From: Escherichia coli
GTDB lineage: Bacteria; Pseudomonadota; Gammaproteobacteria; Enterobacterales; Enterobacteriaceae
Strand: one strand, 5' to 3'
Length of the DNA: 64,000 nucleotides
Assembly: GCF_050320075.1 (NCBI RefSeq)
Contig: NZ_CP190021.1
Part shown: positions 59,407 through 63,263 of the stretch, piece by piece
Numbering within the stretch: position 1 is the stretch's first letter
How the letters are laid out: each line of letters begins with the position of its first letter
Made by a program: the position numbers and the translations under genes
The notes under the pieces: generated by a model
Seen by the model: only the letters and a program-made list of their open reading frames with translations
Database searches by the model: none
What the model was told of the DNA's origin: nothing

Positions 59407-62400
59407 TCATCGGCCGGGGCTGTGGGAGAGATCCTGATGCAGAGTTTTTTCCTGCCTGTCCTCCGGCTTTTGGCTGTTGGACCACTGCTGCCATGACTGC
59501 TCGAAGCCCAGGTTCCGGTACAACGCATCAGGTTGTTTTTCCGGCGTGTAGACAGCAGCAAAAAGCGGTTCTTCCCGGGTTTTCAGATGAAACTGCATAA
59601 GCTCCGGTGCGGGGCGATTCGTGCTGTCAGCATCGTGGTTTACCGCTTCACCATAACCTGCAAAGCGTAAACCTTTGTCGGTCAGCGCATTGATAACCAA
59701 CTGACTGTTGTCGGCCGATGGGGTGGCCAGTGCCGGATACAATGTGCCGTTCAGCCGGACCACACCCTGCAGATGTTCATCGGCACTCTGGACAAGTAGC
59801 AGGTTGAGTTCACGCGTATCCTTATCCACTGATCCCAGAACAGGTGTCAGCTTGTCAGGGGCTGCGCTGGTTATTTCTGTTACCTGATTTGCGTTCTGTG
59901 GCGCGGAGACCGGATGTCGGTCTTCACCGATAAACAGATGTGAGCCGACGTTTTCTGGCATACGTAACGCTTTCATCTCTTCGGGCCACCCCTGGCTGAT
60001 TTGCGCAGCCACTTTCATAAAGGTTTCGACCGGAATCGCCTGAATACGCTGACCTTTATCCGGATTATCATGTGATACCGAGATCCCGTTGGTAACTGAC
60101 TCCATGGACCACTTATTCCGGAAACGTGCTTTTTGCTCACCAGGGAGAATGAATTGTTCGCGGTTCTGAAGTGTCAGTGTCACCACGTCACCTTTCTGAT
60201 GGTTTTTGACCAGACTTTCCAGTTGTTCCCCCCAGTAGAGTTTGCTGCCACTGCGGTTTTTAAGCTCAACAAAGAAACTCTCTCCTTTGCCGGGTGCATA
60301 TTCAGCACGACCAAAATTGTGCAGTACGGCAGTCACGCTCTCTCCCGGGCGAAGTTTTCCTGGTGGTTCTTCACCTTGTGCCGCATCTGCCGTTTTGCCA
60401 GGTTCAGCCGGTGATGATGCAGGGACGGTGCTGACGGTTGATGCTTCAGGGGCAACTGGGGACGCCGGGGATTGTGTGGCTTCTTTTTCCTGAACGGGGT
60501 CAGGGACAACCGGTTGTTCAGGGGTATTCCGGTTAAGTTCCGGCGTTGGCTGATGGGTGACAACAGCATCCTTACCGACAGCCATTTCCTTACGTAATGT
60601 ATCGAGCTCCAGACGCTGATCAGCGTGTTTCATGCGCACATTGATGTTGTGCTCGATAATCAACCGCATCGCTTTTTGCTTAAAGGCATCACTGCCTGTC
60701 AGCTCAATGACGCCACCATAGAAATTAGTGGCCACAGCAAGTGCGGCCAGAACACTGCGATCGTCATTGCTGGCACCGTCGACCATTTCCAGCCGGTTTA
60801 CCCGGTCAATGAAGGCTGGTTTGCCATCCAGCTTGTACAGGACGGTTCTGTCTGCTCGTTTTTCACCCTTCAGTGATTTTATGATTTCGTCCAGATTAAG
60901 CGATATCGGTGCATCAGGACGTTCCGGGGCGTAGACAATACTGTCAGGTGTCGGTGTGGTCGTCGTGGTTTCCGGTGAGGGCGTGGGATCACTGTTCTCA
61001 TGTGCCTGTGAATCCGTTTTTTTACGCGTAAAAAAGCCACGCGCTTTGTCGAGAAACGATGAAGTATTATCAGAAGGTGATGTGCTCTGAACAGGTTGCT
61101 GTGGATTGGGTTCATCCCGGACAGCCGGTTCTGCAGTATCTGTTGTGGCCTGAAGTTCTGACTCATCTGCCTGAACGTGGTCTGTGTCCGGTTGCGACGG
61201 CATATCACTGTTTTCCTGCAGATGCTCAGGATTTTCATTGTTCATCAGCTCCTGATATGCGCTGTAGTTTTCGTATTCTTCGGGGCCATCTGACTCAGGA
61301 AGGAACGGCTCTGGCTGAAGGGGAATGTCTTCAGTTACATGGCTGACCGCCTCTTCCCGGGGAGTATCCGGGGATATTCCGGTGCTTTGTTTGTCATCAG
61401 GCTCCGTCATCACGGTCATTTCCTCTTTGACTGCATCAGGGGAAGGTGATGGCTCGGCTGATTCATTCATGGTTTCAGATGAGGGACTGTCTTCAGGGGA
61501 TGCGGGGGCGGCAGCAGGGGCCGGTATTTCAGGTGAAGTGCCGGATTCCTGTTGTGACTCGTTTTTTTCCGGTTGTGACAGTTCGGCTTCAAATTCACGC
61601 CAGTCTTTATCTGTGGCCACCGAGACAACTTTTTCCGGAGGTTCCGCCGGATGAGCGGGTTCATCAGGGGCAGATGCCGTTGTACTTTCCGGGGACGCCG
61701 GTGATTCTGCAGGGGAGTCCTGAACTACAGAGCTTTCCGTTTGCGCCTGAACGTTATCAGCGTGCCGCTCATCTTTGCCGTTATTTTCAGTGGCGTGACT
61801 GGTAAATGACTGTGTTTCGTCAGCAATGTTACTGCTGGAAGCAGCTGGTTGTTCCTGCTGCGTGGCGGACGGCAGAGAAGGTCCCTGGTCATGGCTGTGC
61901 CCTGTATCGGGTGATGTTTCAGGATATTCTGTCGGAGTCATGGTTTTTTCCTCAGTGTGGACCGGTGTAAAAACGAGGTTGCCGATCACCAGTGCCTCGC
62001 GGATTTCCGGGGTGTTACTGTTGGGGGTGGAAACCCCGATGTGTTCTAACTGGGCGTTGATGACATGCTGAAAAGCGGCCCGTCCCCGGCTTGCGTCCAG
62101 GTCATTGAAATCGGTCAGCCCCTGCGCTTTTTCGGCATCGGTGAACGCAGGAAAGATGACCGTTCCTCCTGTCAGTTCTGCGGCTTTTGTTGCACTGACG
62201 ATACCTTTGTTAACCCGGATTGCATGATCGTTGTCGGCACAGAAGATAAAGGGGCTTTGCGTCCACTTTTGCCGGGCATTTTCGGCAACGGCAATCATGT
62301 TGCCTCCATCCACCGTCATCAGTACCGGAAGGCCCGTGGCTTCGTGCAGGGAGGCCGCAGTGGCATAGCCCTCGGCAAACAGTACCGGCTGACCGTTGCG

Positions 62401-63174
62401 CGGTGTGCCCAGCGCAAACCAGTTACCGGTTTTCTCTGAATCTTTCAGGATGCGGGCATCCTTCCCCCCGGTGACCGGAATACGCTGGTAAGAGCGTATC
62501 GCGCCGTTACGGTTACTGAAGGGAATAACCAGTTCATTTTTGTTGTTTACCCGCACCCCCGGTGCAGCCTGAATGCCTTTCCGGGTCAGGTATTCATGTG
62601 CTGTGGCCTGCGGCCATTTGTTGACATAGCGGCGGGCATACGCGGCCTGTCGGTTGTACTGTGCTTTCAGTTCCCGCTCCGCGTCCTCCCTGCGTTGCAT
62701 TGAATGCGCTTTCAGGTGGAGTCTTGCGCGGGGATCTGTCTGTTCTCCGCCGGAGAAGGTCCAGGTGATCGGCGAATCATCCGCGCTGCGATAATCCCTG
62801 TACCAGCCGGCAGGTCTGCCGTCCAGGAATCCGCGATATGCGCCACTTTTTTGTCCTTTTTTGTCATCGGCAGTCGGGACACGGTGGATTTTCCCGTCCA
62901 TGACCGGCAGTTCTTTCAGAACCAGTCCGGCATTCTCCAGAACCTGGGCAAACTCGGTGACCGGATCACTGCCGTTCATGGAGACGTCCTGTGGCCGGGG
63001 CAGCCAGCGGTCCAGCCTGGACAGGTCCGCCCCCGGGCGGGCGAACCAGAGTTTGTGCTCCTTGTCCCAGATGACGGGCGTGTGCCCGTTCATCGGGGGA
63101 TGTGCTTTTTTGAGATCTTCTATTTCATCTGCAGGCACGGCAAGCCAGGTGCGGTAGCGGGATACAGACGGCAT
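59407..63174 (-). CDS. sogL: SogL DNA primase (SogS expected from an internal in-frame start)
   Basis: Start at MPSVSRYRTW gives 1255 aa (track ORF 59407-63210 is 1267 aa); long P/E/S/T-rich low-complexity linker. Confidence 0.85.
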   Translation of the reverse strand: MPSVSRYRTWLAVPADEIEDLKKAHPPMNGHTPVIWDKEHKLWFARPGADLSRLDRWLPRPQDVSMNGSDPVTEFAQVLENAGLVLKELPVMDGKIHRVPTADDKKGQKSGAYRGFLDGRPAGWYRDYRSADDSPITWTFSGGEQTDPRARLHLKAHSMQRREDAERELKAQYNRQAAYARRYVNKWPQATAHEYLTRKGIQAAPGVRVNNKNELVIPFSNRNGAIRSYQRIPVTGGKDARILKDSEKTGNWFALGTPRNGQPVLFAEGYATAASLHEATGLPVLMTVDGGNMIAVAENARQKWTQSPFIFCADNDHAIRVNKGIVSATKAAELTGGTVIFPAFTDAEKAQGLTDFNDLDASRGRAAFQHVINAQLEHIGVSTPNSNTPEIREALVIGNLVFTPVHTEEKTMTPTEYPETSPDTGHSHDQGPSLPSATQQEQPAASSSNIADETQSFTSHATENNGKDERHADNVQAQTESSVVQDSPAESPASPESTTASAPDEPAHPAEPPEKVVSVATDKDWREFEAELSQPEKNESQQESGTSPEIPAPAAAPASPEDSPSSETMNESAEPSPSPDAVKEEMTVMTEPDDKQSTGISPDTPREEAVSHVTEDIPLQPEPFLPESDGPEEYENYSAYQELMNNENPEHLQENSDMPSQPDTDHVQADESELQATTDTAEPAVRDEPNPQQPVQSTSPSDNTSSFLDKARGFFTRKKTDSQAHENSDPTPSPETTTTTPTPDSIVYAPERPDAPISLNLDEIIKSLKGEKRADRTVLYKLDGKPAFIDRVNRLEMVDGASNDDRSVLAALAVATNFYGGVIELTGSDAFKQKAMRLIIEHNINVRMKHADQRLELDTLRKEMAVGKDAVVTHQPTPELNRNTPEQPVVPDPVQEKEATQSPASPVAPEASTVSTVPASSPAEPGKTADAAQGEEPPGKLRPGESVTAVLHNFGRAEYAPGKGESFFVELKNRSGSKLYWGEQLESLVKNHQKGDVVTLTLQNREQFILPGEQKARFRNKWSMESVTNGISVSHDNPDKGQRIQAIPVETFMKVAAQISQGWPEEMKALRMPENVGSHLFIGEDRHPVSAPQNANQVTEITSAAPDKLTPVLGSVDKDTRELNLLLVQSADEHLQGVVRLNGTLYPALATPSADNSQLVINALTDKGLRFAGYGEAVNHDADSTNRPAPELMQFHLKTREEPLFAAVYTPEKQPDALYRNLGFEQSWQQWSNSQKPEDRQEKTLHQDLSHSPGR

Positions 63175-63263
63175 GAGTGCTTCTCCTGAAAAAAGACGGA
63201 AAAAAACCACCGCCGGAAGCCGGGGGTGGCTGGGGGGATAGAAAATCGGGGGAGAAATGTTTG

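Follow-up and report, generated by a model that had tools for sequence, protein, structure and literature searches.

A predicted disordered, strongly acidic spacer shared by the two products of the IncI1 conjugative primase gene sog

The Sog proteins of the plasmids ColIb-P9 and R64 combine primase activity with transfer of the protein itself into recipient cells (PMC8406263; PMC5512222). Their export runs to hundreds of copies and does not depend on DNA (PMC8406263; PMC6112013), and coating of the transferred strand has been proposed as one of their roles (PMC6112013). Two polypeptides are made from sog, the full-length SogL and an 844-residue SogS that arises by translational reinitiation within the gene (PMC6112013), and in pESBL sogS is annotated as the 3' 2532 nt of a 3765-nt sogL (PMC4288162). 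Here we describe the sog gene carried by a 64,000-nt stretch of the Escherichia coli contig NZ_CP190021.1 (the whole stretch that was analysed, hereafter the window), and in particular the long acidic segment that lies between its N-terminal primase region and the remaining folded modules. The window gene is the same gene as that encoding SogL and SogS of the IncI1 plasmids R64 and ColIb-P9, with 1255 residues, an internal 844-residue SogS and a position in the tra region, and it shows no essential difference from them; the window allele is a mosaic with a divergent LPD7 segment. The acidic segment is probably an intrinsically disordered, strongly acidic tether within this IncI1 conjugative primase gene. 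The features on which the argument turns are the following.

59407..63174, minus strand: sogL coding sequence, 1255 aa plus stop (open reading frame and translation, identity to IncI1 genes, RefSeq annotation between nuc and traL)
60943..61989, minus strand: acidic P/E/S/T-rich spacer, aa 396-744 (349 aa), predicted disordered (composition, disorder prediction, absence of a Pfam domain, indels)
59407..61941, minus strand: sogS, in-frame internal reading frame from M412, 844 aa plus stop (ATG at codon 412 and the size in the literature)
61949..61953, minus strand: GAGGA, Shine-Dalgarno-like, 8-12 nt 5' of the predicted SogS start (upstream sequence ...ACTGAGGAAAAAACC ATG; position computed from the coding sequence)

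The composition of SogL, followed in a sliding window, switches sharply at residues ~396 and ~744. Between these points P, E, S and T account for 173 of the 349 residues (49.6% versus 23.2% in the folded parts, binomial p = 8e-27) and hydrophobic residues are depleted (13.8% versus 28.1%, p = 1e-10), while 73 D/E residues against 16 K/R give a net charge of -57 and an isoelectric point of 4.05; the three folded parts summed carry a net charge of -1. On a charge-hydropathy plot the spacer lies on the disordered side (H-Hb = -0.105), with the three folded modules on the folded side. In an AlphaFold2 (AF2) model of the SogS polypeptide, built from a 40-sequence alignment, the predicted local distance difference test score (pLDDT) is 35-50 over SogS residues 1-330 (SogL 412-741) versus 80-94 in the flanking domains of the same model, and the spacer contains only two predicted helices, both short (SogL 524-531 and 707-715, corresponding to SogS 113-120 and 296-304). 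The spacer has no Pfam domain and no sequence match in the PDB, and a PDB sequence search with Sog returned no relatives. A first-pass annotation of this DNA had named the gene as a SogL primase, correctly in view of its identity and tra-region context, and had described a low-complexity middle of roughly 300 acidic, P/S/T-rich residues. The biased stretch is real, as the P/E/S/T content and net charge attest, and at 349 aa somewhat longer than described; it was assigned to the whole gene (59407-63174), of which the spacer itself occupies 60943-61989. The disorder prediction suggested as a check agreed, by both charge-hydropathy and AF2 pLDDT. The PEST degradation signal is a notion from eukaryotic proteolysis and has no bearing on this composition.

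Differences in length among Sog homologues are concentrated in this segment. With the folded modules as anchors, 117 full-length homologue clusters show 27 distinct lengths of the first spacer, from 181 to 477 aa, and total length tracks spacer length almost perfectly (r = 0.9956). In all 117 clusters the N module stops at residue 393-400, and the middle module spans 126 residues; the N, LPD7 and C modules are constant in length throughout, and a second spacer further downstream varies far less (56-99 aa). When 17 sequences are aligned, identity to that of the window drops to 6-46% at aa 401-750, where most of the gap-bearing or inserted columns are also found. A second cluster of such columns lies at aa 876-950, and the minor remainder falls at the N-terminal end and at aa 301-325, the latter being an insert of 7 columns. 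A search with the C-terminal half of Sog against 1.8 billion representative proteins recovered more distant proteins, at 30-35% identity, that share the primase-spacer-LPD7-C architecture and have spacers of 47 to 731 aa; those of up to ~350 residues are acidic and P/E/S/T-rich as well.

Within IncI1 the picture is different. Length was surveyed in 58 records drawn evenly from the 1,361 that match, of which 1,327 cover at least 80% of the spacer. The spacer measures 1047 nt in 49 of the 58 and 1044 nt in five, the latter forming a lineage of 96% identity, and the four others have frameshifted spacer lengths and lack an annotated gene. The one-codon difference between 349 and 348 aa sits in a PAPAAAPASP run near residue 554. 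Large in-frame deletions are confined to two singleton clusters (P0003 and P0004), whereas the main cluster has 10,386 members. These two variants, which come from other assemblies, lack aa 622-733 in one case and aa 567-734 in the other, and short P-E / S-x-E-T matches mark the junctions; both deletions take out the basic motif at aa 705-719, and the contigs are 68-80 kb long.

The DNA encoding the IncI1 spacer is not repetitive. Tandem Repeats Finder (minimum score 30) gave no match within the spacer, and a direct-repeat search returned just imperfect, chance-like pairs of 13-24 nt spread across the entire gene. In 300 codon shuffles the longest exact repeat averages 10.1 nt, and in the spacer DNA itself it measures 10 nt. 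Relative to the shuffles, 8-mers recur in excess to a like degree in the spacer (z = 3.0) and in the primase-domain DNA (z = 2.7); compressibility is also the same as that of domain DNA. At the protein level no internal repeat was detected in the spacer by self Smith-Waterman alignment against shuffles (z = 0.7), a method adopted because protein self-BLAST was blank even for repeat-bearing relatives. The coding strand of the spacer is 30% A, 31% C and 17% T, its top codons are GAA, CCG, CCT, GAT and TCA, and the apparent repetition is a codon and composition bias that follows from a small amino-acid alphabet. The idea that the linker is encoded by locally repetitive DNA was therefore not borne out by tandem-repeat, direct-repeat, k-mer or self-alignment searches, and the stable length of the IncI1 spacer is probably owed to this lack of repeats. 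The accompanying expectation that such a linker is prone to length variation applies between lineages (181-477 aa) and fails within IncI1 (349 or 348 aa), so that the proposed comparison among sog genes of the IncI complex gives a near-fixed length in IncI1 and a wide range in related groups. The opposite outcome, a spacer both invariant in length and structured, does not describe this segment since it is predicted to be disordered.

The related groups include the Sog proteins of IncK2/Z-type (IncB/O/K/Z) plasmids with a type I mating-pair formation system (MPF_I), which have the same three folded modules (63-76% identity by module), an internal start and an acidic spacer with the same motifs. 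Unlike the window spacer, the IncK2/Z-type spacer contains diverged repeats (protein self-alignment z = 8.6-17), and its DNA holds a 164-nt unit in three copies, a 70-nt unit in four and a 36-nt tandem array. These repeats match the stepwise length classes of the group (~224, 295, 337, 353, 410-415 and 477 aa); the shortest class tested (224 aa) has no significant internal repeat (z = 1.6). In pMS7163B (L003 859-4920) and P0018-P0095, all IncK2/Z-type, the spacer repeats are ~65 aa long and diverged. The IncK2/Z-type plasmids also differ from the window in having no nuc gene 5' of sog.

The spacer is not confined to SogL. The published SogS length of 844 residues puts the predicted start in the window at M412, a position occupied by M in 14 of 17 homologues and by V in the other three. 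M412 lies at the N-terminal edge of the spacer, which thus doubles as the first 333 residues (~40%) of SogS; the term linker is apt for SogL and incomplete in that the same segment forms the SogS N-terminus. Transposon sequencing of pESBL found the SogS part to be needed for transfer and ~26% of SogL to be dispensable (PMC4288162). The pattern fits a dispensable primase-only part; since an insertion in the spacer cuts short SogL and SogS alike, it is uninformative on that segment. For SogL and SogS, masses of 137.8 and 92.2 kDa are predicted. Apparent sizes of 210 and 160 kDa were reportedly given by Merryweather et al. in 1986; the acidic, proline-rich segment common to both products probably explains the ~70 kDa by which each exceeds its predicted mass on SDS gels.

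Three short islands interrupt the otherwise poorly conserved spacer, which also holds the segment used for plasmid multilocus sequence typing (pMLST).

61579..61611, minus strand: DKDWREFEAEL island, aa 522-532 (alignment; AF2 helix 524-531 with a local rise in pLDDT)
61243..61281, minus strand: acidic-aromatic island EEYENYSAYQELM, aa 632-644 (alignment)
61018..61062, minus strand: basic amphipathic island SSFLDKARGFFTRKK, aa 705-719 (conservation; AF2 helix 707-715)
60922..61212, minus strand: sogS amplicon of IncI1 pMLST, 291 bp, aa 655-751 (primer matches)

All three islands are preserved in plasmids of the IncI1, IncK2/Z-type and Salmonella MPF_I groups, and at two of them lies one of the predicted helices. 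The acidic-aromatic island aligns with ADDWSAFAEDL of the IncK2/Z-type proteins, and the basic island, the sole basic patch of the spacer, is kept as PSFMGKARGFFSRR, PSLFSRLRRFLTG or LLDRFRGFFSRR in IncI-complex homologues. In homologues at 30-35% identity none of the three, the basic motif included, is recognisable. Substitution patterns were compared among five IncI1 alleles, module by module. The ratio of nonsynonymous to synonymous divergence (dN/dS) in the spacer is 0.23-0.74, mostly 0.23-0.39 (~0.3), with the top value resting on few differences. It is 0 for the C domain and ~0.2 for the LPD7 module, and the primase region gives 0.11-0.13 wherever differences are sufficiently numerous. 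The spacer is thus less constrained than the flanking domains, though not neutral. The amplicon was located with two primers taken to be those of the pMLST sogS locus; each matches the window exactly and once, at 61194-61212 and 60922-60942. The relevance for typing is that sogS is a pMLST locus (PMC5779644) and that its amplicon falls in the least constrained part of the gene.

In the arrangement that we favour, the spacer would tether the N-terminal primase of SogL to the C-terminal module (LPD7 plus beta-rich) needed for conjugation, and in SogS would form a long N-terminal tail. Selection would maintain its composition (acidic, P/S/T-rich, with few hydrophobic residues) along with a handful of short motifs, leaving its length and the bulk of its sequence free to drift between plasmid lineages. 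Such a segment may act as a flexible, DNA-repelling and solubilising tether, and may supply the transferred protein with a large, already-unfolded segment. Several points weigh against this account. Low pLDDT is a stand-in for disorder and not a measurement of it, no experiment on the spacer segment was found in the literature, and a literature search on intrinsic disorder of Sog returned nothing relevant. A dN/dS of ~0.3, below 1, together with three conserved motifs argues that the segment is not a purely passive spacer. In addition, the near-invariant length in IncI1 (~1,330 plasmids) could mean that length is selected and not merely stable for want of repeats.

One rival is the proposal of the first-pass annotation, that the spacer varies in length and that its length may tune the transport of Sog into recipients. 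The segment is present in both polypeptides, which are exported in hundreds of copies with no need of DNA, type IV substrates are thought to pass unfolded, and plasmid groups differ strongly in spacer length, all of which would suit such a role. However, length is set at 349 or 348 aa in IncI1, the spacer DNA has no repeats that would permit quick change, and repeat units gained and lost neutrally can account for the IncK2/Z length classes; we regard length tuning as unlikely. A similarly low probability is given to the idea of a DNA-mimicking or auto-inhibitory tail, in which the acidic segment would occupy or shield the C-terminal DNA-binding surface in the donor until displaced by the transferred single-stranded DNA (ssDNA). 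A charge of -57 in one disordered segment beside beta-rich domains with oligonucleotide/oligosaccharide-binding (OB)-fold structural matches is suggestive of such a mechanism, and the acidic tails of SSB-type proteins act in this way. The proposed coating of the transferred strand by Sog (PMC6112013) would also be consistent with it. E. coli SSB and phage T7 gp2.5 resemble Sog by analogy, in that a disordered acidic segment lies beside a DNA-binding module that in Sog is putative; the likeness is one of function, and the Sog spacer differs from those tails in being far longer (349 aa) and in lying N-terminal to the candidate binding module.

The conserved islands could instead make the spacer an export-signal platform, in which the motifs at aa 522-532, 632-644 and 705-719 would let Sog dock on the I-type (Dot/Icm-like) secretion machinery or on the coupling complex of that machinery. 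The motifs are kept across IncI1, IncK2/Z-type and Salmonella MPF_I plasmids where their surroundings are not, AF2 places helices at motif positions, and the IncI1 variants without aa 622-733 or 567-734 are singletons. Against this, the motifs are unrecognisable at 30-35% identity, and the deletion variants lie on plasmid-sized contigs and so may be functional; a docking platform is accordingly rated as improbable, at about one chance in ten. Much the same doubt attaches to a broader version in which the spacer is a functional part of SogS, whose short conserved helices (FLDKARGFF, basic and amphipathic; DWREFEAEL / YSAYQELM, acidic-aromatic) would dock Sog on the Dot/Icm-like coupling complex or regulate DNA binding, with repeat-driven length changes in IncB/O/K/Z adjusting how much Sog reaches the recipient. 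A hidden gene in another frame or strand is very improbable. Open frames of 109-119 codons do overlap the spacer (61325-61654 and 61446-61805 on the plus strand, 60879-61238 on the minus strand), but 61% of codon-shuffled spacers hold an equal or longer stop-free stretch in a non-coding frame and the substitutions fit purifying selection in the sog frame. As genes, these overlapping open frames were rejected as composition artefacts on the strength of the codon shuffles. A disordered acidic tether remains the reading that we prefer.

The assignment of the gene is not in doubt: the sequence is the sog conjugative primase gene of an IncI1 plasmid and is already known. It is a single open reading frame of 1255 codons with an ATG start preceded by an AGGAG ribosome-binding site, and is 100% identical over 3768 nt to two IncI1 records, pFORC44_1 (NZ_CP018625) and CP066329. 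Identity is 98.1% to LC567056 and LC567086, where the product is annotated as 'SogL DNA primase', and 95-100% to the annotated sogL genes of IncI1 plasmids overall. At least 80% of sogL is present in 1,318 plasmid records, almost all from conjugative plasmids of Escherichia, Salmonella and Shigella. The longest mechanically called reading frame opens at a GTG 12 codons 5' of the annotated ATG (63175-63210); the ATG is preferred as the start since it has the stronger ribosome-binding site and is used in RefSeq and GenBank, the RefSeq coding sequence being the same 3768 nt. On the records with identical sequence the gene order is traJ, a traK-sized frame, nuc (phospholipase D), sog, a traL-sized frame, DotI/IcmL (traM) and traN, and the window reading frames adjoining sog match TraL, TraM, TraN and nuc, placing the gene in the MPF_I transfer region. 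Two further plasmids, pTB502 (typed IncHI1B, mobilizable) and a Salmonella Hadar MPF_I plasmid (L010 and L011, respectively), encode homologues of 1236 and 1205 aa; on these backbones of other replicon types the genes have the same traJ ... DotI/IcmL context, and pTB502 lacks an upstream nuc.

The folded modules that flank the spacer, and the second spacer, are as follows.

61990..63174, minus strand: N-terminal primase region, aa 1-395 (Pfam, motif, conservation, dN/dS)
62998-63153, minus strand: DUF5710, aa 8-59 (Pfam E 1.3e-8)
62080-62379, minus strand: Toprim_3, aa 266-365 (Pfam E 8.4e-5; 23.4 bits, under the gathering score of 27.2)
62356-62373, minus strand: EGYATA motif, aa 268-273 (motif position)
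60565..60942, minus strand: folded middle module, aa 745-870 (LPD7, pLDDT 82-92, start motif)
60607-60849, minus strand: Pfam LPD7, aa 776-856 (E 2.1e-13, 50.5 bits versus a cut-off of 27)
60343..60564, minus strand: second, shorter proline-rich spacer, aa 871-944 (composition, charge-hydropathy, pLDDT, length)
59410..60342, minus strand: C-terminal beta-rich domain(s), aa 945-1255 (AF2 pLDDT 80-94)

The primase region is 66-97% identical across homologues and free of indels apart from the minor ones noted above, and contains the EGYATA motif, reportedly treated as family-defining by Strack et al. in 1992. The only Tandem Repeats Finder match in the gene lies here, a perfect 10-nt tandem duplication (CTTTTTTGTC twice, plus strand) at 62846-62865 within the primase-domain coding sequence, which is probably trivial. 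The start of the middle module is marked by a D-x-I-x-x-G-P-R-R-P motif that is kept in distant homologues. Part of this module (60715-60891, aa 762-820) gives the sole NCBIfam match, to the end of the TraI/MobA(P) relaxase model (positions 445-502 of 502). With E 0.0012 and 18 bits against a cut-off of 250, the match is too weak to use as evidence of a relation between the LPD7 region and MOBP relaxases; if the resemblance were real, it could hint at a module common to proteins that pass the transfer channel. The second spacer (20% Pro, 48.6% P/E/S/T) falls on the disordered side of the charge-hydropathy plot, with pLDDT 34-53. For the beta-rich domains the best Foldseek matches are all ssDNA binders of the OB fold (RPA70, POT1, SSB), making the OB fold a candidate assignment only.

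Synonymous divergence (dS) differs between these modules. The LPD7 segment (60565-60942, aa 745-870) has a dS of 0.37-0.39 versus the four other IncI1 alleles, while that of the primase region is 0.0035 versus one of them (allele L001) and ~0.18 versus the other three, and that of the C domain is ~0.03 throughout. Judged from these values, the window allele is a recombinational mosaic in which the LPD7 segment is the divergent part.

Beyond the MPF_I plasmids, the closest parallels to SogL are other large conjugative Toprim primases, Pri of the IncM plasmid pCTX-M3 and TraC1/TraC2 of the IncP plasmid RP4, TraC2 being an in-frame internal product of traC. TraC1, like SogL, is transferred during conjugation (PMC5512222). 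Pri has 1070 aa, is only 23-30% identical to SogL and could also yield a C-terminal product of 689 aa (PMC6112013). A primase module joined to travelling modules, with a second product from an internal start (proposed for IncM Pri), thus recurs in conjugative primases. SogL is also cited as a transferred primase in the description of polyvalent proteins, in which Toprim primase and LPD domains are delivered together with DNA (Iyer et al. 2017, PMC5512222), and the sog frame, on a mobile element, does combine LPD7 with a primase region. Unlike polyvalent proteins, SogL has few modules and no self-cutting peptidase module, and two products are made from internal translation starts.

The spacer is, on this evidence, an ordinary disordered linker in a known gene, and the understanding of IncI1 conjugation is unchanged by it. 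Sog belongs to the small set of natural protein substrates of a conjugation machine, and a predicted disordered acidic tail that makes up ~40% of SogS and carries three motifs would offer a starting point for mapping the control of export and of DNA binding.

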